Position numbers and translations under genes: made by a program. Positions 14,001 to 63,853 of a stretch of 64,000 bases of DNA are shown piece after piece (within the stretch, counting starts at the first letter, position 1; each line of letters opens with the position of its first letter). Source of the DNA: Laetmonice hystrix (Eukaryota); the NCBI GenBank assembly GCA_965235115.1, contig OZ249436.1:20462001-20526000 (forward strand), given 5' to 3'. The notes beneath the pieces are model-generated. The model did not search any database. It saw nothing but the letters and a program-made list of their open reading frames with translations, and was not told where the DNA came from.

Positions 14001-17000
14001 ATGGCGGCGCCCAAGGGTGGGTCATTCCTAAGTTGATCACTCGTGTGAGAAAAGCAAATGTAGTTTTCATAGTTTTTATTAACCTAAATGAAATGACATG
14101 CACTATTCCGAATAATTCTTTAACCTATGCCATCTATGATATAGAGACACTATTGTACTAACGCCGTGTAATGTTACTACGCGATAAATCATTCAAATAT
14201 CGCTCACTGTATGGGACTTCGGACCTCCTTCCTTGCCCTGCTTCTCCACTTCGTCTGGGCCAGGCGCTGGTTCTGGCGGCACTGGTTAAACATCAATCCG
14301 TGCTCAGACCAAGGACACTGGCCAAGCGGTTGATTTTTTTGTCAAATGTAATAAATAAGTTGAAAGATGAAGATAGTAATTATGTAGTACTAATGTTAGT
14401 GCTATCCCCAGCCTTCTTCTGCCTTAACCCTCATTGGTGGTTCTTTTAGGGGCGGATCTAGGGTCTAGATATTTGGGGGGGGGGGGGGGGGGTCCGAAAT
14501 TTTCTAATTTAATCAGGTCTATCATCTTCCCCTGAGCCTGAGGACTGAAAATGCAAATTAATGAGTAAAAAATTATTTTTGTGGCCCAACTTCATTAATG
14601 TGCTCATGAAAGACATCACCAGGTTATTTGCTGAATTGTTCAGTAAATTTCTATACAGCTGCATTGTTACTCAGACCAGTGTTTCCGTCCTTCTAATGTA
14701 AGGGGGTACGGGGTGGCGCAGTGGTTAGAGCACAGGACCTTTGATCCAAAGGTTCTGGGTTCGAACCGCGGCTGTGTCAGACTTTCCTGCATAGCAGTGC
14801 TGCCGACTGCTTTATCAAAGGCCGGCTGTGTTACGCTATGTCAATTTGGAGAGGCACGTTAAAGATCCCTTGGCATCTATTGATAAGAGTAGGGGTTCGC
14901 CCCGATGCCGGGTTTCCTCCTATCATCTCATCATTATCACCCAATGGATTTCACTGACTGAGTTAGTTACCTTGTTCTCGCCCTGAAATAGCTGAAATAC
15001 TGCTGACTGGGCGTTAAACACCAACTACTCACTAACTGACTCACTCCGTCCTTGTATGTTGTCAGATGACACAAGTCGAGACAACCTGTCCAGTGTGAAA
15101 CACATTATACTGGTGCTGTCTGGTAAAGGTGGTGTTGGGAAGAGTACTGTAGCAGTACAGCTCGCTCTTGGCTTTAAGAATGCAGGCCAAAAGGTAGGTC
15201 ATCATTAACTCATAAAACCTTGTATGCACTTAAGATTTGGGAATAAAATTTATTTAAATTTAACTGAATCTTAAAGAGGTCTGAATTTGAACTGCACAAC
15301 AGAAAAACACCATACATGAAAATGATATATGAAAATTTATGTAATCTATGCTAAAACAATGCTTACTGATGCCAGGTTGGAATTCTGGATGTAGATCTTT
15401 GTGGGCCAAGTATACCCAGGATGCTAAACATAGAGTCTAATAAAGTGCACCAGTGTCCAGAAGGGTAAGTTATCATAGATATGTGTTCATAAAGTTGTTT
15501 TTTACTCTTAACATGACTCACTTTTTGTGGTTCCTGTCAACAATGCATGCTAATTTATATGTGATCTGTCTAGTGATGGAAATAGATTTCTTTGCAAGCT
15601 TCTAACTACCTGCCAACCATTCAACTATTAATTGGAATCTTGTAAATGTTCACAAAAAAATCAGAACATTTTGACTTCCACAAAAACAAAGAAAGCAATT
15701 TATTGTGTGGTTTTAATATATGACATGTTTTTTTCTCACACCTATAATGCTATACAATGGTAACAATGGTGAAATTTTCAGGCTCAGAATATTCTTTCTC
15801 TACCTTTAAAATATGCAGAGCTTAAAGGGAGCCGTAAAATTCATTTTTTCGATTTATGGCAGTGTTAGAAACATATGATTCGCATACCTTGGACTCCCAG
15901 TAACATCATGTGAGACTGTTATGGCCCAGCGACCAGTATTTAGTAAGGAAAATATGCCAAATCTCTCGCAAATACGTAGCTCAGAATTAGCGAGCGGCCC
16001 ACAGGATATTTAAGTTGGCCGCGGTCAGGCCATGATGACGCGTGATCACGTGACTTCCGGGTGTGGAAGGGAATCTCCCTCTAGTCTAGCGTTGACCTAA
16101 ATACCGCATGTACACCCGGAAGTCACGTGATCACGCGTCATCATCGCCCGACCGCGGCCAACTCAAATATCCTGTGGGCGCTCGCTAATTCTGAGCTACG
16201 TATTTGCGAGAGATTTGGCATATTTTCCTTACTAAATACTGGTCGCTGGGCCATAACAGTCTCACATGATGTTACTGGGAGTCCAAGGTATGTGAATCAT
16301 GTATGTTTCTAAGACTGCCATAAATCGAAAAAATGAATTTTACGGCTCCCTTTAAGTTAAGATCATGCTAACCTTTCTGAAACCGGACCCTGGACATGCT
16401 AACTGTCGCTATGACTGGAGCTAGCTGCAGCAGGTCACACCTAGGGACCCTGCCACTATATGCGCTGGTGTTAGTGGGCCTAATTTTTTTTCCTCTTGGG
16501 TCTTGGCCCCCAAAATCGCCTGCATATTAATACACGAGTGCGTACTATACACAATAATTTAGGTAACTAAATTACTTAACAAGTTCAGTTCAAACATTTT
16601 ATCCAGTCTCATAATGGGCCAGCAAGGTACCCTATACTGTTGGGAAGGAAACCTAGAAACTCCACATTATGTCCATTACGTTTCATATGATTTATCAAAT
16701 CAAATGTTGTTTAAATCGTTGGTGCAGTTTTTTTTAGGAAGGAAAGGAGTGTAAAATAAATATTTTTTTCAGGTGGGTACCTGTGTTTGCTGATGCTGAA
16801 CAGCGTCTAGCTGTCATGTCGATTGCCTTCCTGCTCAACAGCCGGGATGAAGCTGTAGTCTGGAGAGGCCCAAAAAAAACAGGTCAGGCTCCAAGGATTC
16901 AGGTTTTATTTTCCTTTTTTCAATTTTTTTTTTACAAGAGGAAACATGTCATTAATAACTTTTGCAGGTAATTACCTATTGTTTTATATCCATAAATGAC

Positions 17001-18225
17001 ATAGACATGACAGTTATAATCTTTCACTGTTTGCAGCTATGATAAAGCAGTTTCTGTCTGATGTCTACTGGCAAGACCTGGACTACTTGATCATTGATAC
17101 CCCACCTGGTACATCCGACGAACACATATCAGTGGTGGAAAGTCTTCGACAGTACTCACCAGATGGAGCTGTTCTGGTCACCACCCCACAAGTTAGCAAC
17201 AGCATAATATTTTTTCTCTAATTTGTTATCAGATTAGTCTTGTAAGAAAAAAAACCTCAATAAACGAACTTTTTTAAACATTTTTTAAGGTGCGGTTCTT
17301 TTTAACAAACCCTACAAATAAAAATATGGATTTAAATATTTCTCTCTTTCCTATAGGCTGTAGCTGTAGGGGATGTGCGGCGGGAACTCACGTTTTGTAG
17401 GAAAACTGGTATTCCAGTTTTAGGAGTAGTGGAAAATATGAGTGGATTTGTATGTCCACACTGCACTGTGAGTATAAAATACACATATCCCAGGGGTACC
17501 TTGTCACTGGCATAGAGACATGGTTTCCAGGGTTGTTTCTTCCATGACAGTTACACCTAGCATGTATTTTTCACTCTGTGCCCATGCAACTAATCATAGA
17601 TTCTGTGATTTTCTGGTTTTTAATTACCAGTTTTAAAACAAACACACACATGCAAGATATTCCTTGTGACAAAACAGCTTACCTCACATAATGATTGACA
17701 AATAACTTTTGTTTTAACAAAATCAATTTCAGGAGTGCACTAACGTTTTCTCTAAGGGAGGAGGGGAAGCTTTGGCCACAATGTTTGATGTACCATTCCT
17801 TGGTAAGCCAGATCTGATGTTCTAGTGTTCCCTCATCTGCCCCTCCCAACCAGTGGATTGTAAATTTTGCTTTCAGCTCAACATCGTTTGTATCTGAATG
17901 GATGTAATTCTGGATTGAATTCTCTCCCTGATAAATACAATTTAAAACTTTAAAGAAGAACTAAACATTCAAAGTCCGATAAAGAAATCGGTATTATTGT
18001 TGGATGAGAGATTAGAAGAGTAGGTCTACCCGTGTGCAAAACTTAAAACTCCTTTTTTTCAATTATGCTGCAGGTTGTGTACCTCTGGATCCCAAAGTTG
18101 CTGCTAGCGTGGAAGCTGGTCAAAACTTTCTGCAAATGTACCCACAGTCGCCAACTAAAGACGCTATCCAGAACGTTGTGGATAAAATTATGACACAAAC
18201 TAGGACATCCATAGGAAGCCAATGA
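14001..18225 (+). CDS. NUBP2: Cytosolic Fe-S cluster assembly factor NUBP2 (Cfd1), 8 exons, ~276 aa
   Basis: Exons 14001-14016, 15066-15193, 15376-15464, 16773-16882, 17037-17191, 17357-17467, 17733-17802, 18074-18225 (831 nt, phases consistent). Motifs [50 protein letters not shown]. Lacks the N-terminal Cys cluster of NUBP1. Confidence 0.93.
14702..15045 (+). mobile_element. tRNA-derived SINE in NUBP2 intron 1
   Basis: A box GTGGCGCAGTGG, B box GGTTCGAACC, central GCACGTTAAAGATCCC motif (resembles Meta-type SINE core), (ACTC/ACTA)n tail, flanking TCCGTCCTT duplication. Confidence 0.85.
15826..16351. mobile_element. Palindromic Kolobok-like MITE in NUBP2 intron 3
   Basis: About 240-bp inverted arms (15826-16064 / 16112-16351), termini AGGGAGCC...GGCTCCCT, TTAA on both flanks. 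Confidence 0.85.
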
Positions 18226-19234
18226 TACAAACCATGACTGTTAGAATCTGTGAGATGATGTCATTTCTGGCACTGAAATCTATAACATTAGACGGGTTTG
18301 TGCTAAATTAGGGGAACAGACAGACAAATTCACTTGGTTGCTATATGGGGATAGGTTTGTGTGGAAAAAAAGAAAGAATCCCCTATCTTTTAATAGTAAG
18401 TGAAAAAAAATCAATAAATAAAAAAATCTGAACCACTGGTATACATTATCATTATCTACTTGATTTATGACAAGAAAGTTGTAGGCATACTGTAATTCTT
18501 AAAGAAAATCACTTATCTTATATTTCAGATCTCTTATAAATATATTTCAATGACTTCAAAATGAAGACATGGGCTGTTAGGTTAGATACCGGTAAGGCCC
18601 TAGATTACATAACTCATTAATGTATACCCACAGAAATGGACAAATGTAAAATGAACATTTTTTATCGTTGCCTGTCCGCTATGAAATAGTTGACCTAGCA
18701 TTGCCTGGAACAGTCAATGAAATTCATCGGTTCATCACAGGAATTATCCCCCAATACATCCTAGCTAAGGAGATCCCTCTTGATCAATTTAGTGAGATCA
18801 CCCAATTCACCTCGTGTACAGTCTACCCTGCAAGTAGTCGTGAAAAAAACCTCCGTGCTAATGTTTGTTGTATAGGCCTAGATCTACAGCTCTAAATAAA
18901 GTTTATCTTTCCTCTTAGGCCTATCAGTATCATATGGCTGGCGGTGGAGAGGGGGGCACAGGGAGGGGCCAAGAGGGGGTAAAATAAATGTATTAGGGAA
19001 AAAAAGGGGGGGGGTTCCCGCCCCTTTGGGGTTGCTTTGGCCAATAGCAGAGCCTCTAGCCCAGGGTTTGTACGTGTAATGATTAGTTCCACACGAACCG
19101 CTAGGCTGCAGCAGTAGGTAGGGCTAATGTCATGACATGGCCCTCTGGCGTTTTTAACTTGAACTATAGCCTTACCCAAAATAGTAGTTTTGCCATTCTA
19201 CTAGGCATTACCTTTGTTGTGAATAACGTTAATG

Positions 19235-19316
19235 TCGTGCGGAAGAAGCAGCTATTATATGTGGTGACAAACGAGTTGAACAGGTATAACTCTGAGGAAA
19301 TTACTGGCGCCACCTG
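19235..19316 (+). other. Putative non-coding first exon of the ABCA gene (5' boundary approximate)
   Basis: CpG-containing patch ending in a strong donor CTG|GTGAGT; the coding exon has an acceptor 3 nt before its ATG, so an upstream exon is needed. Confidence 0.45.
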
Positions 19317-20985
19317 GTGAGTATGGCCATAACTCTGGGAGCGGTTTCGCGAACGGTGCATGTCTGCACTACCATTGTGGGATTTCCACAACAGTTTGCT
19401 CAGTTCATTCAACAGAAACTGTATTAAATAAAACCAATCGACACTATATTAGTTTAACACAAACACTAATTTTAATAGGAAATGAAAAGTTCTATCATGC
19501 AATATGGCTGATGAACCCCATAGAATTCGACCAGGGTTTCGAGAGTATGTTTACACACGTGACCATGACCAGCTGACGGAGGGTGCTGTGAGAGAGAATC
19601 TTTGTTATGCTCAGCTTGAGCCCCTAACACTACATTTATATTACGGTATGAGGGAGACCATTGACGTGGACCTACAAAACATCCTGTAGATCTGCTACAT
19701 ACAGGGATCTGTGAATGCGAAATGAATTATATTATTTAGGAGAGGGAAGATCTTCATATCACGTTGGTAAGGATGGGAAAAGGTTACCTGACGGAAAGAG
19801 TAGGGCTGGTCTTGACTTGAATGTTATGAATATGATTATGCTATATGGTGATAGCCTACCGAGTACTGTAGACAGTGTTAACTTAGTTCCTGTAAAAGTA
19901 TATGTTTTAACAGCACAGGCGAAAGACCGTGCACAGTCTATACTACCTGGTATTATTGTTTGGATAAGCCAAGCCAAAGGCAAAGCTGATATTCATGCCA
20001 GTCCATTGGCATTGTCATTATTTGCTGAGACTAAGTTGCTAGCACTAGCAGTGCTTTTGTTTCTCCAAGTCGACCAAGACAGTGTTTTTGATTTGAATCA
20101 TAACAAAATATACATTACAGTAATCTATTTATTAAACTCTATTCTACTCTATTTATTAAACTGGTGCATATGCTTGGTTTATTTTGAAATACACTCTAGA
20201 ATGAAACTATTCCAGACCTGGCTGAAATTGTTATCTGATAGAGAACTCAGTTTGGTCATGTTACATCAAATATGGGTCAGTCCGACAGTAGCTCTGAAAT
20301 GCAGTATCCTCTTTGTTGTCTGACTCGGATTTCACAGGAGAAAGCATGCATGACCTATTCCCAGCTAGGGTCAAGACCTAGTACACTGTGATGGGTCATG
20401 TGGATTGGGCATGCAGATACCCATGTGACTATGACACGACCACCCCCCCACACACATTCAATTAGAAGTAGTTTCTGTGCTAAAGTCTATAGTGTTTGAA
20501 CTGCTGGGATCAATGGGCCCTGGTTACATGCACCTAATGTGTGGTTCATGTGTGATCTGCAATTTCTTACTGCAAAAGTTAGATAACATCTAATAGTAAA
20601 AAATGTTTTTAGAAATATGTTAAAGAATGTATACAGATTTAAAGCATTTCATGAACTTTGGATGAAATGCATGACTTTATTTCAAAAGTATTTTTTTTTA
20701 AGCTTCAAATCAGGATTATGAATTTCTTGTTGTTTGAAGGATTAGAATCTGAAAGTGATACATCTCATTGATACATGTCAGAGAAGGTTTGAATAGAATA
20801 ATAGAAAACCTTCAATTTAAGTCAAAATTGGAATTGAGCAGATAATTAGACTGAACTGTGGAGCTAAGTTTTACACACTTCTGGGAGGCAATTCTATGTA
20901 TTCCATGTTTAAAACGTAGCTTGAATTGTATGGCCTAATACTTACTTCCTATCTTCCCAGAATTGCTTTTGAAGAATCGCTTCTG

Positions 20986-21139
20986 GGGCCGGTTTTACTA
21001 AAGGTCCTTATTTAAGGACGTCGCTAATTTAACATAGAAGTGAATGGGTTGCTAGGTCGAAAATAAGGACCTAGCAACCATTCACTTCTATGTTAAATTA
21101 GCGACGTCCTTAAATAAGGACCTTTAGTAAAACCGGCCC
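20986..21139. mobile_element. Hairpin Harbinger-like MITE
   Basis: Nearly perfect palindrome GGGCCGGTTTTACTAAAGGTCC...GGACCTTTAGTAAAACCGGCCC, CTG/CAG flanks. Confidence 0.8.
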
Positions 21140-21195
21140 CAGGAACAAAAAAGTGGTTTTCACTGATTCTATTTTGTCACCCTTTAATACAGGCA

Positions 21196-24100
21196 ATGGC
21201 ATCTGGACTGTGGCGCCTTCTCCTTCTCCTATGGAAAAACTTCTTGTTGCAAAAGCGGAGGTTGATCGTAACCATTGTAGAGATTGCTCTGCCTGCCCTG
21301 TTTGCACTCATCCTCATAGGAATCAGGCAGCGGGTACAGGCAGAGCCTTATGCAAATGTCACAACATGGCAAGCATTTGGCCTTGACAAGCTGCCAAAGA
21401 ACCTGACCACTTATCCTGAATGCTGGGACAAACGACCATGGAAACTTTATTACTCTCCCAGTTTTCCTGCCACCAAATCTGTGATGATGTTGTTACAACA
21501 ACAGATTGGACAACCTATCTCAGGTAATGTGTTAATGTTAATTGACCACATTGAACATCCTATCTCAGGTGATGCATTAATGTTAATTGACCACATTGAA
21601 CATCCTATCTCAGGTGATGCATTAATGTTAATTCAACACATTGAACATCCTATCTCAGGTAATGTGTTAATGTTAATTCAACACATTGGACATCCTATCT
21701 CAGGTAATGTGTTAATGTTAATTCAACACATTGGACATCCTATCTCAGGTGATGCATTAATGTTAATTCAACACATTGAACACCCTATCTCAGGTAATGT
21801 GTTGGACATCCTATCTCAGGTAATGTGTTAATGTTAATTGACCACATTGAACATCCTATCTCAGGTAATGTGTTAATGTTAATTCAACACATTGGACATC
21901 CTATCTCAGGTAATGTGTTAATGTTAATTAAACACATTGGACATCCTATCTCAGGTGATGTGTTAATGTTAATTCAACACATCGGACATCCTATCTCAGG
22001 TAATGTGTTAATGTTAATTAAACACATTGGACATCCTATCTCAGGTAATGTGTTAATGTTAATTCAACACATCGGACATCCTATCTCAGGTAATGTGTTG
22101 GACATCCTGTCTCAGGTAGTGTGTTAATGTTAATTCAACACACTGGACAACCTATCTCAGGTAATGTGTTAATGTTAATTCAACACATTGAACACCCTAT
22201 CTCAGGTAATGTGTTAATGTTAATTCAACACATTGAACATCCTATCTCAGGTAATGTGTTAATGTTAATTCAACAAACTGGACATCCTATCTCAGGTAAT
22301 GTGTTAATGTTAATTTACCACATTGAACATCCTATCTCAGGTGATGCATTAATGTTAATTCAACACATTGGACATCCTATCTCAGGTAATGTGTTAATGT
22401 TAATTCAACAAACTGGACATCCTATCTCAGGTAATGTGTTAATGTTAATTCAACAAACTGGACATCCTATCTCAGGTAATGTGTTAATGTTAATTCAACA
22501 CATCAGATATCTTATCTAAGGTAATGAATAAATATTACAACAACAGATTGGACAACCTATCTCAGGTAATGTGTTAATGTTAATTGAACACATCAGATAT
22601 CTTATCTAAAGTAATGAATAAATATTACAAATGTTCAACACATTGGACAACCTATCTCAGGTAATGTGTTAATGTTAATTGAACACATCAGATATCTTAT
22701 CTCAGGTAATGTGTACATGTTAATTCAACACACTGGACAACCTATCTCAGGTGATGTGTTAATGTTAATTCCACAAATTTCTGAGTGAGAATCATTGCTC
22801 TTTTTTGTAGAAGTGGTCGGCTATGAAACAGAAGATGCCATGGTTAAAGATATTATGAAGGACTTGCAGAGCACAGCTGACTGTAGTAGCGTTCTTGGTG
22901 GTGTGGTTTTCTACAACTGGGATACTTCATCCCAGTTCACTGTGCCTCAAAACCTGACATATAAAATCCGCCTGACTGCATCACCAAGAAATGCAGGGAA
23001 GGAGGGAAAAAGAAAACTGAATCCTTTTGGTTCAGATAGCAGATGGCTGACAACATTCCAGTTTCCAATGTTCCAGTCGGTTGGACCAAGGGAAAAACGG
23101 TGGAAACGTGGAGGTTTGCCAGGTACTTAAAATCATGTTAAGTCTTATGCAAGTTGCCAAAGTGGTTTTTGTTTCCATAACCTCTGTCATTAAGTGTTTT
23201 AAAGCAAGTCCTTTTGATTACATTGGAAATTTACTAAATGTATAATATTTGATAATAGAGATCTCTTCATTTCGGTGACATACAGTATTATAAATGTTAC
23301 AAATTTATTACTTTGCTGAGAATTCCGGGATTTGTTTCAGGATATTGGCGTGAAGGCTTTCTGACAATTCAGCATGCAGTGAACAAAGCCATAACCTCCC
23401 TAGCTTCAAGAATTCCTGTCACTTCACCTGACATCAAATTACACCTGCGACGTATGCCTTACCCACCATACAATGATGACAACTTTGTGGTTGTGGTGCA
23501 GAAATACTTCCCACTTCTCTTGATGCTCAGCTTTGTTTTCAGTGCTCTACACATTGTTAAAGAGATTGTACATGAAAAGGAAAGGAGAATTAAGGTACCT
23601 AACACTAATATTATTGAGTATTGTTAAAGGTCCACAGTCCTATTGATGTTCAGAGAGCTTGTTATTATATTATCAGAAAATCTCTTAAAATAGAACGTGT
23701 ATGGAACTAGATGGTTGGTTAAAATGAGTAAAGATATCTCAATGTCTATTAAGTTAAAATTGGACAACTTATTCTCACATTGCTGTCTTGAATTCATTCC
23801 GTAAATGTGGCCATGCAGGAAACTCTCAAGTTGATGGGACTACCCAACTGGATGCAGTGGACAGCCTGGTTTATCAAACACTTCATCTGTCTGATAATCA
23901 CTGTCTCCATCATGACTGCCTTCTTCATCATCAAAGTGGGAAATAAGGGTTCTGTCATAGGATATAGTAGTCCGTCTATCCTCTGGGTATTCCTGCTTGT
24001 CTATTCCATGGCAACCATTGCATTCTGCTTTGCTGTCAGTGTGTTCTTCAAGAAAGGTGTGTTTCTTTGAGAACATTTATCAAATAAATGAACAAATATT

Positions 24101-27100
24101 TCTAGATAGCGAGTGAAAGAAAGTATCGAGGTATCATACTGTCTCTCACAGTTAATAAAAAAACGTGTTTTGTAAAAACTGAGAAAATGTGAAGTCTCCT
24201 GACATTTTGGACTTTCTTATTGGAATGTGAGCAGTGTAAGTCATGTTAAATCTGTGCATCATTTCAGCTAACACAGCAGCAGCAGCAGGAGGTGTACTGT
24301 TCTTCCTCACTTACATGCCTTACGCCTTCCTACAACCACGCTACGACACTCTGAGCTGGGCAGGCAAGATGTCGGCATGTCTCTTTTCCAATGTTGCAAT
24401 GGCATTTGGTGGACAAGTATTTGGGATGTTTGAGGGCACAGGTAAAGAATATCAGTAATAATGTAAAAATTATTGATAGTCTGCACTGGAGGTTAGCTCA
24501 AAGCTTTTCTTTTTAACTTTTCTGACAGGAAACAGGCCAATATGTAACTGAGTTTTGAATAGTTAATTTATTATACTGTTATATATTGTATACTGTTCCC
24601 TTATCAGTAAGTATCCAAATTATGTCTATTATAATATTATTCTTTTTATTATAATCGGAAACCTGTCTGAAAATGTCTTTTCTAAAAGAACTTCAATTAA
24701 CATGAAATAGTGGTGATATTGACCTTGTGTGTTGTTGACAGGTGCTGGGATACAATGGAGTACAATTGATCAGGGTGTGTCCGTAGACGATGACTTTAGT
24801 TTACTCCATGTCATACTCATGCTACTCCTGGACACTTTCCTTTACTGTCTCATAGCGTGGTATGTGGAGGCCATCAAGCCTGGCGACTATGGCATAGCAC
24901 AGCCATGGTATTTTCCTGTACTGGTTTGTATACATTTATGAATTTATTCTTTTTTTTCTCTCTTTTTTTTTCATTTATTCTTTGAATGCCTAAGAAATAA
25001 ACTATGTAGCCTCTGTTAAACTATTGAAGGTAATAAGTCATTATAAATTATACATTTGTACAATTTTTCATATTAATTACATGGAATTAATATGAAAAAT
25101 TGTACAAATGTATAATTTATAATCCTTTATAAAAAAAAAAGACTGTTCTAGCATTGTTTCCTTTTAGATTTACTTTTGGTTGTCTATTTAGCATTTTTTT
25201 CCATGTTGCATGTAGAAATCGTACTGGTGCGGCACCAACCCTAAGGAACTTGATGAAGATGAGGTAGATGTCTTGGATAGCCAGATGTTTGAAAGTATTG
25301 AGAAGGACCCCATTGGTATAGATGCAGGAATTCGCATTCAAGGATTAAGAAAGGTGTGGTTTTCATTTGTATCAGAACTTTTCACTCTTTTTTTAAACAG
25401 ACCATTTTTTTACAATGCCTAATATGGTAATTCAAACTAATTGAAGAGCTTAGATTTAACACTGGAATCATACTGTTGTCTGGTGTCTTTCAGGAGTTTG
25501 GGAAGGGAGAACAGAAAAATGTTGCTGTGGCTGGGATGACACTGAACATGTATGAAGGACAGATCACTGCGCTGCTGGGTCACAATGGTGCAGGGAAAAC
25601 TACCACAATGTCCATGTTAACAGGTCAGTCATGTCAGCTGCCAATTATATTGTTCAATTTCTGCCCTTTTCTTTATTGTCTATATCGTTCTAAGACCAAG
25701 AAAAAGGAAAAAATCTGTATGGCTAATGTCATGCACCTTATTTCAGGGTTCCTGTCCCCTACCAGTGGCACAGCTATCATCAATGGTTACAACATTCGTA
25801 CAGATATAACAAATGTCCGCAAAAACCTTGGCCTCTGCCCGCAGCACGATGTCCTCTTTGATAGCCTAACAGTTGAAGAACACCTCACTTTCTTTGCCTT
25901 GGTGAGTAATGTCAGGGCCACAAATAGATGTGCTGTGCCAGAACAATATCATCGTTTACTCTCGTGTGTGACTCTCTTCTTATTGAATTTTCTCACACCA
26001 ACGAAGTAAAAAGGTTTGGATCAAGGGCCACTTGTTAATTAACTGAGTGTACGGTACAGCCTTTATTAGATGTCAGCAAGCAAAACATGTTTAGGACTTA
26101 TATTGGATATTTGTACACAAATGTGTGATGGATTACATGCATATAGTGTGCTTGTAGCCAGGAGATATTGTGACAAATTGTTTGCAGGTGAAAGGTTGGC
26201 CTCTTGGACAAGTACGCCAGGAAGTTAGGCGCATGCTTCGTGAATGTGGCTTGGTTAGCAAGAAGACTGCTTTATCTAAGACACTCTCTGGTGGTCAGAA
26301 GAGGAAACTCTCTGTTGCTATCGCCTTGATTGGTGGCTCCAAGGTAAGGCTCTAAGAAGGAATATTCTGTTAATCTTGTTGGTAACACTTTCCTACAGAA
26401 AGCTGGCCCAGTTGCCAAGGTTACTATTTTCAAAATATGCCCAGAAGTTGTTCCACTTGTCTCCAGAAACCTACCATATTTTGGCCAACTACACAGTGCT
26501 AAGTGTACATTGAAACTGGAATGATTCTAGATTGTGATTCTGGACGAGCCTACCTCAGGCTTGGACCCAAACGCAAGACGCCACCTGTGGGATGTACTAC
26601 AGCGTCACCGGGCAGGACGTACGATTGTCCTCTCGACACATTTCATGGATGAAGCTGATCTTTTGGGTGACCGTGTAGCCATAATGGCTGACGGGGTCAT
26701 TCAGTGTGCAGGCTCCTCTCTCTTCTTGAAAAATAAATATGGTATGTGACAGGCATGACCTTGGCAATAATAAACAAATGTATGATTCAGAAATTTTTGA
26801 AGTACAGGGTAAGAACATGTAAATGAAAAGCTCAGAACACTTGAGTCTTAATTTTAGCATTTACATTTTCCTCTCCAAGGTGCTGGTTACCACATGGTGA
26901 TTGTCAAGTTGGACGGTTGTGACGTTGACTGTATCACAGAACTAGTCATGACCCACGTACCTGAGGCACACCTGGAGAGTAACATCAGTGCAGAACTCTC
27001 CTACATTCTACCGGCCGAAAGATCAGATCAGTTTGAGGCACTTTTCTCGCAGATTGAGCAAAATCTGGAGGAACTGAAAATAGCGAGCTTCGGGGCTTCT

Positions 27101-30100
27101 GTGACAACGATGGAGGAGGTGTTCCTCCGGTAAGTACGGTATTTGCATGATTCGCCATACATGATTCAATTTTAAATTTTATGAGTACATCCATGAAAGA
27201 TTAAAGCCAGCCTTTCCTCTAGGCATTGAGATATATGTTGCAATGTAATGCTGGTACAAGTGTCATTGATTATTGTGTGAATGTTCAGTGTTGGCGAGAA
27301 CATGGACGGGACACTGCGGGACAGATTACAACAGACAGGTGCCATGATGGCAGGCGCTCCAGCCGAGCCATGTAAGTCAGATCACATTCTATTTTCCTCT
27401 AATTTGTGTATACCTCGGATAACTGAACTCTCCCTTCCTGTGCCCAGATTAGAATCTTCGTACAACCACATTTCCCACACTCTACAGCTAGATGTTTTAT
27501 AGATGTGCTTTTTCTAATGACAATACAGAAATATTAAAATTATAAATATCAGGTTTTGTAATCTTATGGTAGCTACAACACTCCCATGACTAGTAGATGT
27601 GGACCTTTAAAAAAATAGACTTATTTACGGGTACAAGGTTTCAGATCCGAGAGATCTCAGTAACATAATTTGTTTGCTGATTGTGCAGTGTTCAATGTGG
27701 ACATCCAGTTCAACCGCGGTCTGAGGCTGGAACTGCAGCAGTTCCAGGCAATGTTTATCAAACGTATGCTGCACACAGCCCGTAACTGGCTCGTCACCAC
27801 CACCCAGTTACTCATACCTTTGTTCTTCACGGTCATCGGTCTAATCGTTCTCAAGACACATCCTCCCCCGACTGACTCCCCGGCACTGACCGTGTCTCTA
27901 GCTGGGTTTGGGGACAATGTTCTCGGCTACAGCAGTGGACCCGATACCAATAAGCTGACAGAGGGATTGTGCAGAGCGTATGGCGAGAGTCAACTGATGG
28001 TCAATTCATATACCCAGCTTGACTACTTGAATAATGACACAGAGTACACACATGACCCGTCGATGATGCAGTTCTTAGTTGATGAAGGAAGTCGTAGCAT
28101 CAGAACGTATGTCACTCATTACATCGTTGGAGCCGAGTTTGTGACAGAAGAAACCAATGGTACAAACCAGACTCTAGGAACAGCATTCTTCAACAACCAA
28201 GGCTATCACACGCCAGCCATTGCATTGACGGCGATACAGGTAATACGTTTTGTGAAGTACCAAGGTACAAGTAATTTTAGCGAGGTACATGTATTTAATT
28301 TAGCGATTTGCCATTTTCGCTAACAATAGTTGCCGCTAAATTTTAACCATAAAGCCTTCCATACTAGTACTGATTCTCAAATCGCTAAAATTTGTACCCG
28401 CTAAATAGTCCATATTGAAAATTCACTAAATTTTCTAACCACTAAATTAAATTGTTATATCATAGTATATCGTATTCAGCTCTAGCCTTGTTTTAGTTTT
28501 AAGATCCTCTCTCATGCATCATTTGACCTGGGATCATTTTATGACTATTGATGTTTTTTCTTGTCCTTACAGAATGGTGTCCTGCGGTACCTGACCAACC
28601 GGAACCTGACTCTAACTACCATTAATCATCCACTCCCTCGCACACTACAAGACAAACTTAATGATGAGTTAGACATGGACTTTACTGGGTTTACAATATC
28701 GTTTTATGTCATGTTTGGCATGGCCTTCCTTGCATCCAGCTTTGTCCTCTTCCTCATTAAGGAGCGGGCTATCAAGGCCAAGCACTGTCAGGTCAGTACA
28801 TTTGGACAAATTTCTTCCCATTTCGATACAGCATTCCAATATTGGTAGAGCTAAAGCAAAACCACCAAAAATATCTCAGGTAATCAGGAATGAATGAAAT
28901 GTTGCTTATTTATTCCAATATCTGATGGTAACGTAGAGTGAGACGATGCGAGATGTTTGATATTTCAGTTTGTGAGTGGGGTTGGAATGGACGTGTTCTG
29001 GGTCTCTACTTTCTGCTGGGACATGATCAACTATATGATACCCGTGTTGCTGCTGATCGTCACGTTCTGGGCCTTCGGAATCACGGCCTTCAGTGAAGGC
29101 TCCCACCTCGGCCACATCCTGCTCCTGTTCTGTCTCTATGGCTGGGCCTGTCTGCCCTTCATGTACATATTGTCCATGCTCTTTACCGTACCATCCACAG
29201 GTTTCGTGTGGCTCACCATGTTAAATATCCTCTCAGGTAATCTTTCCGGCTAACACCAATAGAGAAAACTTCAGAGATCTATACGTAAGAACCAACAAAA
29301 CCTGTCGTGTGCTTGTATAGTTTATCACTCGTATGTTACTCTAATGGAGAAAGTTAACTTGAGGCTGTAGATATTTTACCTTCAAATGTTTCCTATTCCG
29401 AGAGGGTTACATATGAGTAAATGCCTAGATTATGTTTCCATGTTGAAAAGAATATCAGAGAAGACGAAAGTCTAACTTCCCTATGAGTATTTTGTAAGAT
29501 GGTTAATGTTTGTCCAGGAATTGGGACAGTGATGGCCGTAGAGATCCTACTACTACCTCAGATTGCCTCCAAGGCCGTCTCTGACGGCCTCAAATGGCTT
29601 TTCCTGACTTTTCTGCCAACATTCAACTTGGGTCAGGGAATCCAAGACTACTACAACAACTACCAGTTTCTTAACATCTGTACGTCGACTCCGGCCGTTG
29701 TCGCCTGCAAGATGCTACACTTGGAGACTCCCTGCTGTAAAGGTAGGCACAGGGATATCACCTCGAGTAATGTGAAATACCAGATATTTATTTATAATTT
29801 AGAAAGGTAGAGCTTGAATTTGTTTGAAAATGATGCCATGACAAGTGTGATATTTTTGTATCACAGACAACTGTGGCAACAACTGTCTCGACTACAACAC
29901 CGACTATTTGTCATGGCAGCCAGGGGGCATTGGGCGCATGCTTGTCTTCCTGAGTATACAGGGCATTTTCTACCTGGGCATCATCTTCATGATCGAGTCG
30001 GGAATATTCCGCCGGGTAGGCTGCTATATGAGAATTTACTTAGGATGGCTGGTGTTGTTGAATGGTCTGAAGATGGCCAGCATACAGCTGGACATGTAAT

Positions 30101-32388
30101 TAGGATATGTTCATCTGGTAAGCTACGTAAAACAATTAACTAAAATACTATAATTAACTATACCTGTAGCTATTTATTGTAATCCTAATCTTTCTCCTTT
30201 TTGTGTTGTAGATCTGGTACTTCACAGCGAGATTGAGACGTACCCCAGTACTGAGTCGGAGTAACAGCATTCACTCGCTGGTACAAGAAGATGACGACGT
30301 TCTCACTGAACGTCAGAGAATTGCTACCATGTCTCATGACGACATCAAAGTAGGTCACACCCTGGTGCTCAATGAACTGAGCAAGTCTTACGGGAACTTG
30401 TTAGCGGTAGACAGACTGAGTCTGGGGATCAGGCGGGGTCAGTGCTTCGGTCTGCTAGGAATCAACGGAGCAGGAAAAACGTCGACCTTCAAGATGCTGA
30501 CTGGAGATGAAACGGTCACTAGTGGAAATGCATACCTGCAGGGCTTTGATATCAAAACGAGCATCAAACAGGTAAGAGGCCGGCATCAGCGGCTACTTTA
30601 AGTCATGGCATTATTATTATTAGTGCATGGATGGGATATTCTGCAATATTTTGAAAAATTTCTATTCTCCTGTGAAATTTTTCACAAAAACCAATCGATG
30701 GTCCTGCCAATGATTGTGTTGCTAACGATTGTTTTTTGAAGGAGCACATTATAAGATTTTCCTGGTGTCTGCCTGCAGGTCCAGAGATGTCTAGGGTATT
30801 GCCCACAGTTTGATGCACTCATTGACCAGCTGACCGGGAGAGAGACCTTGACCATGTATGCTAGACTCCGAGGTGTGGTCAGTTACCAGATCCCGGGAAT
30901 GGTCCAACAGATCATTAAAACTTTACTTCTCGTCGACCACGCTGACAGGCTGGTCGGGTCATACAGGTGAGTACATGACCTAGGACTAGACTAGACTGTG
31001 CTAAATTAGTTTCTTAAATAATATTACTGCAGTAGAAGGGATCTCACAGTTCATGTAGTAAGTATGATACCAGTATGATCTATAGTATGTTCAGGAAGTT
31101 GTGTCATGTAAATGCATTGTTCTTGACCTTGAAGAGTTTCGTCCTTGTTATTTTACAGTGGAGGAAACAAGCGTAAACTGAGTGCAGCGATAGCACTGGT
31201 TGGAGACCCACCCGTAATATTCCTGGATGAGCCAACCACTGGCATGGACCCTGTGGCCCGCCGACTTCTCTGGGACACACTGTCCCGGCTCCGAGCGTCA
31301 GGCAGTACCCTGGTGTTGACATCACACAGGTCAGTCTCGATACATGCCTAACTTGAGCTCGATCACTGGCTGGCAAAACAACATCAACTATAATAGATTG
31401 ATAGTCGAGAATCTAGATTAGACCATAGGCTCAGTTAATGTCATTGGTAGTCTTCAAAAGTCTGCAAGCTTCACAAGACTAGTGGCTGGATGCAAGGACG
31501 TAGTTAGTCTCAATATTAACCCAATCCATGGATTTACGCCTATTCCCAGTTGCCAGAAAGTCAGAATGTTCAAGCCTTTTCTCTTTTTTGGGGTAAGTGG
31601 CCCATTTTTCACTGGCCAAGCACAATAGAATTCAGTTAAACATGAAGTCTACCAAACATACCCAACCTTAAATCTAGGCTAGATAGTAAGTTAAGCCATT
31701 CTTGGGATGTCACAAAATGTTTTTGCATTCAGCCATCAGCTATTAAATGCAATACTTGAACCCTAGATATGCTTAAGAGAGAACTTTGTAAGGTAATCTC
31801 ATTTTCTGTTTTTGTTTCCACAGTATGGAAGAATGTGAAGCGTTATGTACACGGATTGCCATCATGGTGAATGGCCAGCTCAAGTGTCTCGGCAGCACTC
31901 AGCACCTGAAGACCAAGTTTGGGGAGGGTTATACCGTGCTAGCCAAGGTAGGCCTGGCAGCTGGTGGTATCACATTCGATGACAGCTCGGACGTACCAGT
32001 ACCCAACCTCCAGCCCCTCATGGAACACATCGAGCAGACGTTCCCGAAGAGTTCCCTCAAAGACGTCCACCAGGGAATGCTCCACTACCACATAGCGGAC
32101 CCGACCATCTCCTGGGCTAAACTGTTCGGTGAGATGGAACGCTGTAAGTACAGGTTCCACATAGAGGACTACTCAGTCAGTCAGACGACGCTCGACCAGG
32201 TTTTTATTAACTTTGCCCGGTCCCAGGTGGCGCCACAGGAGACATCGGTTGGCTGTTGCCGCCGTGCCGCTACCTGGTGCTGCTGCTGTAGTTGTCACTG
32301 CTGCAGCGCCTGCTGTAGCAGATGCTGCGGCAGCAGTGACGAGGAGGATGAAGATTATGTCCACATCTTGGAGCATGAGATAATTTGA
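21196..32388 (+). CDS. ABCA3: ABC transporter subfamily A, ABCA3-like, 22 coding exons, ~1768 aa
   Basis: Exons 21196-21523, 22811-23122, 23341-23594, 23819-24056, 24268-24441, 24742-24923, 25216-25353, 25494-25623, 25747-25901, 26188-26343, 26531-26741, 26880-27129, 27289-27371, 27689-28239, 28573-28791, 28969-29236, 29518-29742, 29867-30015, 30212-30571, 30779-30966, 31159-31329, 31824-32388 (5307 nt). LLLWKN N-terminus; NBD1 [26 protein letters not shown]2 [23 protein letters not shown]. Paralogue assignment by recognition only. Confidence 0.9.
21505..22771 (+). repeat. 45-bp minisatellite spanning the ABCA exon/intron junction, ~28 units
   Basis: Unit CATCCTATCTCAG|GTAATGTGTTAATGTTAATTCAACACATTGGA; two 26-bp truncated units give a 296-bp higher-order repeat. 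Confidence 0.95.
25041..25122. repeat. AT-rich inverted repeat (hairpin) in an ABCA intron
   Basis: TTATAAATTATACATTTGTACAATTTTTCATATTAATT - ACATGG - AATTAATATGAAAAATTGTACAAATGTATAATTTATAA. Confidence 0.85.
28258..28467. mobile_element. Degenerate MITE-like element in an ABCA intron
   Basis: Repeated TTTAGCG at the left end and CGCTAAA/CACTAAA at the right end, in inverted arrangement. Confidence 0.45.
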
Positions 32389-35300
32389 TAAGCCCTCCTC
32401 GCAAACCCTCCGTTCCACTATGTCCAAAGAAACTACCGGTAATTCTCATGCGTCATCGTGATGGCACAAACGTGTTCAGGATTTTAAGTCAGGTTGCCAC
32501 TGTCGAAATTTGTGATGTCACATGGGCATTCCATGGTAGCACGGTTTGAGAACAACCAATCCAGTCAGAAAAAGACAAGTGTTTGTTGTCACAATAAGTA
32601 TTCCTATTACCAGTATAATCAAGGGAAACCCAAAGCAAGTACGTGTAATGTCAAAAAAATTGATTTCTATTTTCATTGTCCCCTTCGGTATCAGTGGTGT
32701 AGTTTGAATTGTTCACAGTTGTTCAGTCTGTAAATTCTTGATCTATACGAGGAACCTCGTATGATCTCATTGTATGATCACCGACCTTCGGTACAACTGC
32801 CATCATCACAGCTGTAAACATGATGGGAGTACGTGAAAAATAAGTTTGTGTATGGGACCATATTGTCAGATGTTGATCATCTTATAAAAAGTTGATTGAG
32901 AAAGTTTGTAGCGATGCATCATTCCATGATTCATCAAATTGTGATACTAATTTTGTGATCAACAGTGGCGTTGTAAATGCATTTAATCATTCCTACAGAT
33001 TATGATAATCATTCTTTCCAAATAAAAAAAAAAAGAATTTTCGAGATCATTGGGGGAACAAATCTTTACAAAATGTGTGCAAAGATTTCGTAATAGTTTT
33101 TATAGTATTTTAAGCATTTTTATTAAATTAATTGATTAAGATAGAATGTTATTTATTTGACTTTATTCAGATTGTTCATCATTATGATGAAGATGCATGA
33201 GATATTGCTGCAGAGTGTGCGTACATGATATCCTACCTATGTACACATGGTATACATAATATGACCAGTGGCGATAGCATGGATATATTTATTGTCTTTG
33301 ATTTAGATGGTCCAAAGTTCAAACATGGTAGTATTCATTAGAGTGAATGCAGTGAATAGCAGTACTGTGACTTCAGTCCTTGAAGTCCTATCATCTACGT
33401 GTTTTCGTAGGAGTTCATAATTGATAACTTAATGTGACTTTGAGTTGACAGTCAGAAGTACCGGTATTGAGTCCCATCACCACATTTGGTCTTATTGTAG
33501 GTGTAGGTAAGTATATATCCTTGAAAATGGTGCTGGGTTCCGTTCTTGTACAGACATAAGACGTATTTATTCAGACCTATAGTTAATTTTACGACAAAAA
33601 AAACCTGATTTGATATTGCGTTATAGGCCATATATATTGGCGTATCTCCACCCAAATATTGATCTTTGATCACTGAGTGTAGTTGCGTATGTTGTGAAAC
33701 CTTTACCACATGTATGTTACGGGAGATATTTGTGGTCCACGATGTCGATAGGTATGTCACTATGTGCCAGTTTATTGAGACAGAGTATGAATTGTATCAT
33801 TCCTATGTCTGCACCGCTTCTGGAATATTTGTTTTATCACATAGGTCATTGTAGATCAATGGATCTAGCATCTAGTAATTGAAACTATTTAAACCTATTG
33901 ATGTTTATATTATTACAAGCGCATTTATTTTATCACCTTACATTGTTTTTACGGTTATATATCGTGAATATTTAATCATTAGTGATAGTGACCGCATAAT
34001 GATATCATTCCCTAGTTATAGTGTAGAGACAACTCATTCTTGATGTGTGGCTTTTCCCTGTGATCAGTGATCAAGAAGCAATAACCTTGTATTAATGTGA
34101 GAATTCACCGATGGAACCTAAACCAGATTATTTTACTCTTATTGATTATAAGAACATGTAAAGAGGTGTACCAAAAAGGTCTTACCACATGCATTGTTCG
34201 TACCGCTCAAAATGTTTTACATCCACCAATTGAGTGGCCAGACAACCTGGCCGAGTAGAGAAATGTCTTGAAATACCTTTCTTATTGAAATTGTAAACGG
34301 AAATATATTGCGTAGAACAAAAATATATCCTTTTTTATGAATATATTTTTTAGACTAGCTCGGTGAAGAATTTGTCGCATATTTTAGATTCTTACCAGTG
34401 TCGGTTTTGAAAGTGTTTATTTTCAGAACCTGCCGTCCCATACATCATTTTAATCTTGCCTGTATGTGTTATCAGTCAGATTATCTGTCGTTTATTTGCG
34501 TAATTATTTAATGTTGATATTTAATGAATAAAATTTATAATGGTTTATTTTGACGGTGTGATGAGGTGGTTTTTCCCCATTGAGGTTGTGTTTATTGGTC
34601 TAAACAGGCGGTCTACGGGAATGAGTACTGGCAATTCAGGGTAAAGTCTTTAAAATCTCAGTTTATCATAGCGGATTGTCCACCTAGAGTTGTGGACACG
34701 AAATAAGGCAGAGAATGAACTGGATAACGTAAGATTTTACATCTTATGTCCATTATTAGTGGTTCGGGTGACAATATATATCTCAATTTTAGAGACTAGT
34801 CGGTTACACCTGCACTTCAATGCGTACTCCATTGTCTCAGCAAACGCAGACGTTCGTGACGTCATTCAAAGATTACCATGTGGAGATACACAAGTCCACA
34901 AAGAATTGCTACTAACGGAATATGATGATGATGTTGTGGGCCCTGATTACCGCGGTAATTAACGGGTAGATTGTTACATTGATAAGTGTTGATGTCATTG
35001 ATTGGTAGTGATCGGTTGGTCCACTTTTATTGGGGGTATTAATCATGTCACTGACTCACAGGGAACAGGACGAGGGGGTGATATTTATTGATAGACAGAC
35101 TTGGCGTCTGTGCTGGTGGCTAGAACGGGTACACTTGTACATCTGTACTCGTACAATGGAGGGATGGCTGTAAGAATGTCAGTGGTTTAGAGAGATCATA
35201 ATATCGTGAATTTATCTTTGTTGCACGTAGGCGTACTTATACATCAGTTAATGATTATTTAAAATTAACATGCACTCATCTAGGCTCATCAAGTCGGTTA

Positions 35301-42737: not shown

Positions 42738-42974
42738 ACACGCGCCATACAGTCCAAGATCTCATTACGTTTTTAATATATTATATGAATATTAACTAAC
42801 ATTGTAAGCGTGGCGTCCTGCAGGCTACAACTTGTTCAGTTGTGTATCATTAGGACATCTACCTACTTAAGTTCACACGTCATGAAGGTGTCAAACTAAA
42901 TAGTTAAGTAGAACCGGCTACATTTCGACATCACTACATACAGTGACATTATTTATTTTTCAAAGTGTTTGTAT

Positions 42975-43282
42975 GTATGTAGATCTATAGCCTACTGTTG
43001 CGTAGAAGCGACCTGTATGTAGATCTATAGCCTACTGTTACGTAGAAGCGACCTGTATGTAGACCTGTATGTAGATCTATAGCCTACTGTTGCGTAGAAG
43101 CGACCTGTATGTAGACCTGTATGTAGATCTATAGCCTACTGTAACGTAGAAGCGACCTGTATGTAGATCTATAGCCTACTGTTACGTAGAAGCGACCTGT
43201 ATGTAGATCTATAGCCTACTGTTGCGTAGAAGCGACCTGTATGCAGATCTATAGCCTACTGTTGCGTAGAAGCGACCTGTAT
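42975..43282. repeat. 40-bp minisatellite, ~7 copies, in the probable sulfurtransferase 3' UTR
   Basis: Unit CTGTATGTAGATCTATAGCCTACTGTTGCGTAGAAGCGAC, two units with a 12-bp internal duplication; AATAAA downstream at 43681 and 43707. Confidence 0.9.

Positions 43283-57660: not shown

Positions 57661-63853
<6,193 letters not shown>

Follow-up and report, generated by a model that had tools for sequence, protein, structure and literature searches.

A minisatellite built over the end of the first coding exon of an ABCA3-like gene in Laetmonice hystrix repeats its splice donor

Described arrays of exon-intron boundaries

Tandem copies of an exon-intron boundary are known in lancelets under the name of 'mirages', where they occur in Adh3, troponin C, the globins BflGb6 and BflGb9, and PGBD5, and where splicing is reported to be undisturbed (PMC3087553, PMC3902484). 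Reported unit lengths range from 10 to 160 bp (PMC3087553), and the accessible text of both papers proposes such arrays only as a route to new introns (PMC3087553, PMC3902484). In humans, intron 7 of F7 carries a 37-bp VNTR for which 50 constructs showed that the identical pseudo-donors are functional and that only the most upstream one is used, even when later donors are in frame (PMC1557585). As summarised in the same source, LMNB2 and PDGF also use the first donor only, while in IFI6 (6-16) and CBS two further donors are used (PMC1557585). With a 25-bp VNTR in intron 18 of human ABCA7, one unit is reported to be retained at a minor level whatever the array length, while skipping of the next exon does depend on length (PMC5954066). 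Across these lancelet and human cases the first donor dominates, and use of the one or two donors after it is minor at most.

The array and its host gene in Laetmonice hystrix

The window analysed here is a stretch of 64,000 nucleotides of Laetmonice hystrix DNA (contig OZ249436.1), in which Tandem Repeats Finder places an array of 45-bp period at 21499-22779. The array lies across the 3′ edge of the first coding exon and most of intron 1 of an ABCA3-like gene, with the following features:

21193..21523, + strand: first coding exon, with ATG 21196, TM1 and the start of exoplasmic domain 1
21499..22770, + strand: junction minisatellite that repeats exon end and donor 28 more times, in units of 45, 26 and 50 bp
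21524..21525, + strand: first, probably authentic, donor; phase 1, after residue 109, at the intron position and with the loop length of relatives
21524..21793, + strand: six in-frame, stop-free units that lead to donors 2-7; use of such a donor would lengthen the protein by 15 aa per unit
21524..22115, + strand: two copies of a 296-bp block, 93% identical
21829..21831, + strand: in-frame stop of the read-through frame
22476..22750, + strand: most diverged units, probably the oldest, with 4-9 differences from the majority unit
22751..22810, + strand: end of the array (a partial unit), followed by the unique intron stub and the acceptor, which scores 7.3 bits (leave-one-out)
22811..32388, + strand: remaining 21 exons of the ABCA3-like gene, of which introns 14, 17 and 19 match spliced contigs

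The initial annotation had counted about 28 tandem donors with the first seven in frame, and this description holds: we found 29 donor-like sites between 21523 and 22750, 27 of which read CTCAG/GT. Twenty of the 29, donor 1 included, share an identical 9-base donor, so that 19 copies equal donor 1, and over 7 bases the agreement with donor 1 extends to 27 of the 29. Unit length is 45 bp in 25 cases, 26 bp in two and 50 bp in one; a 60-nt remainder and the acceptor at 22811 follow, which brings intron 1 to 1287 nt. The annotated block of six 45-bp units and one 26-bp unit is indeed present twice, as 296-bp copies with 93% identity. Differences from the majority unit number 0-3 in the middle of the array, 4-9 at its 3′ end and 0-6 at its 5′ end, and the true exon end, which differs from the units, recurs almost exactly before 22565, inside the diverged stretch. 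Scored with a matrix built from the 20 other donors of the gene, 28 of the 29 sites reach at least 7.5 bits (the odd one scores 2.1), and these 28 span 7.5-9.3 bits against a median of 8.0 for the genuine donors. By comparison, the gene's 20 other introns contain three GT sites of at least 7.5 bits in 4632 nt, against 28 of 29 sites in the 1.3-kb array. This demonstrates that the array holds competing donors of equal predicted strength.

Donors 1-7, ending at 21523, 21568, 21613, 21658, 21703, 21748 and 21793, are all in phase 1 and stop-free, and each joins the acceptor at 22811 in frame. The read-through frame closes at the stop at 21829-21831. The initial annotation had attributed premature termination to all donors beyond this stop; the stop is where it was placed, yet the loss of frame begins before it, at donor 8 (21819), which lies 5′ of the stop and is frameshifting. 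Donors 9-29 all lie 3′ of the stop, the last three (22660, 22705 and 22750) being again in phase 1, and in total 22 of the 29 donors lead to a premature stop. Similarly, the annotated addition of 15 residues per unit stands, but the His-rich character given to it fits less well, since the repeat peptide varies from unit to unit and holds 2 His per 15 residues.

Comparison with the lancelet cases shows that the array has four features of mirages: a boundary-spanning tandem repeat, unit size, retention of the splice signal and concerted turnover. Boundary copies stand in tandem in both, most of them with their splice signal kept (28 of 29 sites here); the unit lengths of 45, 26 and 50 bp fall inside the range of 10-160 bp; and a homogenised middle lies between diverged edges. 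On the other hand, there are 29 sites here against 3-6 units in the lancelet globin mirages, and the present array sits in another gene and has seven consecutive in-frame donors. We found no report of this locus in the literature searched, where coverage of subscription papers was thin, and the accessible text of PMC10078293 and PMC8724738 holds nothing on arrays of this junction type. In structure the array is of a described kind (mirage or donor-spanning minisatellite) and not a new one, of which it provides a fresh example.

The array is real, and an assembly artefact is unlikely. In three DNA-like sequencing runs, contigs begin in the last unit and run on through the unique intron stub (compared region 22706-32500), and the unit variants of the assembly are also present in contigs of those runs. 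Depth over the repeat part is roughly 27, 15 and 29 times background in the three runs, a rough excess of the right order, in which depth is not copy number. The units are also varied and show higher-order structure. An array created by the assembler, which we regard as scarcely credible, could draw on two points: none of the contigs listed bridges the whole compared stretch of 22706-32500, and all four runs come from one sample, possibly the source of the assembly itself.

With donor 1, the host gene encodes an uninterrupted ABCA3-like transporter of 1757 aa, in which 866 of 1652 aligned residues (52%) are identical to the lancelet ABCA3-like protein P0055. The layout fits a full transporter of this type, with two membrane and two nucleotide-binding halves and ABCA3 as best match, an assignment made from alignments. 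Among relatives of solved structure, human ABCA3 is also the best for exons 1 and 2, which correspond to residues 25-116 and 145-225 of its chain, respectively. The junction consequently falls after TM1, in the first exoplasmic domain, in agreement with the position first annotated. The first coding exon would begin after an acceptor AG at 21191-21192, preceded by a putative non-coding exon; this candidate, at 5.6 bits, matches the acceptor median of the gene and ranks 7th among 151 AGs in 18900-21200. Apart from intron 1, the introns are short (20 introns of 123-494 nt), and the largest exon has 551 nt; the donor of intron 13 and both borders of intron 18 are the uncertain parts of the model. 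Furthermore, the RNA-like run X4, which has no cover over 22706-27937, contains three GT-AG joints, and all three coincide with modelled introns (14, 17 and 19), so the gene appears to be transcribed and spliced.

In Pfam, exon 3 had a match to ABC2_membrane_3 that stayed below threshold, and the one other match, to dockerin, was due to chance. Word-index protein searches gave no match to exon 2, two matches to exon 1 and no spliced protein of Laetmonice hystrix, and the read-through product was absent from the protein collection searched. A single-sequence structure model of that product was of low confidence, with a mean pLDDT of 50.6 and the repeats mostly below 50, and so gave no information on its fold. 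Elsewhere in the gene, the protein ends (about 32250-32388) in a tail with very many cysteines, possibly lipid-modified, and after it an acidic stretch, and introns 21 and 14 (about 31430-31710 and 28290-28490) hold high-copy interspersed repeats, with depths of up to 16000 and 2500 in the DNA-like runs.

The ancestral donor and the open reading frame

Alignment of P0055 to the window placed its residues 16-102 on 21244-21525 and its residues 98-201 on 22807-23124. The protein is thus continuous across 21525/22807, and nothing is missing when donor 1 is used. We then compared the distance between two anchors, one in each exon, which is 55 residues with donor 1 and 70-145 residues with donors 2-7. 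Thirteen of 154 proteins examined span both anchors, two of the 13 belonging to one cluster, and in 12 of them the distance is 46-58 residues, which fits donor 1 and not donor 2 or any later one. The exception, P0035, has 200 residues between the anchors. The surplus in this ABCA3-like protein, about 145 residues at the corresponding point of the ectodomain, is non-repetitive, and it means that insertions there can be tolerated, which counts against the first-donor reading favoured here.

A G occupies the donor-1 column in 33 of 38 aligned top relatives, as counted by eye in an alignment that may favour a matching G; the 38 are the best 40 without P0027, which matches the repeat only, and P0034, which has no anchor motif. 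After this G most such relatives pass into unrelated sequence and end early, the pattern that reading on into a phase-1 intron should give, and many of the related-protein matches are short products that apparently run from the first coding exon into the intron. The closest relative, P0001 (70% identical), continues past the junction without repeats. A period-15 repeat was seen in four of 152 proteins, all of which match the repeat alone and none of which is ABCA-like. The intron position and loop length of the relatives, together with the lack of the repeat among the ABCA relatives compared, indicate that the array is a lineage-specific addition behind a conserved donor. Conservation at donor 1 shows which donor is ancestral; which donor is used now is a separate matter, and this counts against the first-donor reading.

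The seven in-frame donors raise the possibility of a functional ladder, in which donors 2-7 would be used at substantial, possibly regulated, levels to add 15-90 residues to the first exoplasmic domain, while later donors would feed nonsense-mediated decay (NMD) and the length of the array would tune both dose and isoform mix. Seven consecutive stop-free donors of equal predicted strength are what such a ladder would need, P0035 provides one relative with a large insertion at the site, and the extended exons would measure 376-601 nt, sizes that overlap or slightly exceed the range of the gene (largest exon 551 nt). An open unit is nevertheless explained by descent, since more than half of it is copied coding sequence. 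Simulations that duplicated the junction at each of the gene's other 20 donors gave an in-frame, stop-free result in 3248 of 19220 cases (17%), with values of 0-33% according to the donor. Moreover, the ladder register is open in 22 of 25 units, including units behind the stop that cannot be translated.

The variants among units lead in the same direction. The first six units show five amino-acid-changing and two silent variants, and the 14 units behind the stop show 11 and three, for an expected silent share of 0.21 without selection. No excess of silent variants is seen in either group (2/7 and 3/14), in a test whose power is low at 7 and 14 variants. The open frame is unremarkable, and nothing in these sequence comparisons points to selection on the peptide. 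The initial annotation had proposed a His-rich ladder, or NMD tuned by array length; with about one sixth of random duplications open, variants mostly amino-acid-changing, units behind the stop open as well and the repeat absent from relatives, this proposal found no support, nor was it refuted. A graded ladder that adds 15-90 partly intron-derived residues to an ectodomain handling lipids, in which array length would decide both the mix of isoforms and how much is lost to NMD, would be an unlikely outcome.

Choice among the donors and neighbouring features

We consider it most probable (roughly 75%) that the array is a tolerated by-product of repeat instability and that the first donor is the one used. 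A 45-bp piece that takes in the last part of the first coding exon and the first part of intron 1 has been repeated in tandem, probably by slippage or unequal crossing-over, and the first misalignment may have been seeded by a likeness, noted by eye, between the start of the intron and the exon about 48 bases upstream. Later turnover would then have produced the homogenised middle and the duplicated 296-bp block. In splicing, the exon would be defined from its upstream acceptor (candidate 21192) and the first donor met would be taken, as for human F7; the spliceosome would do so almost always, so that the copies are removed as intron and a normal protein is made. That the gene is intact, even though 22 of its 29 donors would truncate the product, counts for this reading. 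The initial annotation had offered enforcement of the first donor as its alternative, and it is this alternative that is better supported, by the conserved intron position, the loop length of relatives and the F7 precedent as described in PMC1557585.

Predicted donor strength and RNA structure were both considered as selectors of donor 1 and were both rejected. Donors 2 and 3 do differ, being a little weaker than donor 1 (8.7 and 9.3 bits, respectively), but 19 copies carry the nine bases of donor 1. Most units can fold over their donor, with -8.3 kcal/mol at donor 1 and -8.2 kcal/mol at the copies, and the unpaired probability of donor 1 (0.001) lies inside the range of the copies. Hairpin occlusion also fails because donor 1 and the copies are paired to the same degree and the folding of the array is no better than that of shuffled sequences (z of -1.1 to -1.7 in all four stretches). 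Since the copies are equal to it in both respects, neither strength nor structure can choose the donor, and position remains. In short introns, intron definition would favour donors near the acceptor. With introns of 123-494 nt in this gene, enforcement of the first donor is here an assumption from mammalian work.

The likeness to F7 is close: in both cases the exon end falls within the first unit, so that the intron holds one donor after another (5-9 copies in F7, and 25 pseudo-sites in IFI6), and identical donors compete for one acceptor. Unlike in F7, the unit is a stop-free multiple of 3, so that leakage to donors 2-7 would stay in frame instead of shifting it; the host is not a mammal, and its introns are short. 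In the accessible account of F7, in-frame pseudo-sites stay unused (PMC1557585), which weighs against a functional ladder, while the use of the next two donors by IFI6 and CBS, reported in the same place, speaks for one and counts against a strict first-donor reading (PMC1557585). ABCA7 also cuts both ways. It belongs to the same transporter subfamily, each unit of its VNTR starts with a donor and one-unit retention is seen there; VNTR length tracks expression and exon skipping, but the retention is minor (about 2%) and unchanged with VNTR length (PMC5954066). From what that paper describes, the two arrays are of independent origin, that of ABCA7 sits at another intron, before the first nucleotide-binding domain, its retention is out of frame and its unit has no exon-derived part. 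Altogether, a regulated isoform ladder is unlikely. For minor use of donors 2 and 3, giving a few per cent of transcripts with 15 or 30 extra residues that escape NMD, we would put the odds at about even, as plausible leakage on the model of CBS, IFI6 and ABCA7.

In recursive splice sites an acceptor is directly followed by a donor, the acceptor is strong and has a pyrimidine tract, and the intron is very long. The array junctions share the first of these properties, with AG/GT at 28 of 29, and the units hold, by eye, a branch-point-like and a pyrimidine-rich stretch. It could thus be imagined that units running from GT to AG correct themselves, a wrong or stepwise cut regenerating a splice site until repeated splicing yields the normal mRNA. 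Unlike recursive sites, however, the array has weak acceptors, a short intron (1287 nt) and a tandem origin. On a matrix from only the gene's 21 acceptors, whose own median is 5.6 bits, its AGs reach between -6.6 and 3.8 bits and most of them lie at 0-2; a quarter of ordinary intronic AGs reach 1.3 bits. A single unit of 45 nt is also far below the shortest intron of the gene (123 nt), and AG/GT arises automatically when any donor preceded by AG is duplicated. With internal acceptors this weak and units so much shorter than any intron of the gene, such self-correction seems decidedly unlikely.

Finally, splicing could be spread over many donors and most transcripts destroyed, leaving a damaged gene tolerated as a low-expression allele. 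Equal predicted strength and the premature stops from 22 of the 29 donors would allow this, but the remainder of the gene is intact and conserved, the diverged end units suggest that the array has persisted, and known donor arrays, as far as the accessible texts report, splice mostly normally (PMC3087553, PMC3902484, PMC1557585). We hold this outcome to be very unlikely.

Under the preferred reading, of a tolerated repeat with first-donor use, the array is a clean but ordinary case and offers, outside mammals, a natural experiment on how a 5′ splice site is chosen. Twenty identical donors compete in a gene with short introns, and any transcripts leaking to donors 2-7 would be spared by NMD, so that they could be counted directly in RNA reads. 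Were the ladder true, it would be exonisation caught in the act, with six extra in-frame donors, unlike the frameshifting donor VNTRs; were it also regulated, a junction minisatellite would be creating tunable protein diversity.

A second junction array is present in the window, at 61631-61725, where a 31-bp unit is repeated three times over an exon end and donor of the gene for COP9 signalosome subunit 4 (COPS4). Its unit is not a multiple of 3, and its presence counts for the preferred reading of the array in the ABCA3-like gene. Another minisatellite (42974-43282, 40/52-bp units) showed no link to a splice junction by eye. About 50 nt 5′ of the candidate first-exon acceptor, a perfect 65-bp inverted repeat with a 30-nt spacer (20983-21142) looks, from its sequence, like a small hairpin transposon. 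Further upstream, a gene on the + strand at about 15070-18230, which from reading by eye we take to be NUBP2/Cfd1 (a P-loop iron-sulfur scaffold), holds in one of its introns a large near-perfect inverted repeat (about 15830-16355, by eye).
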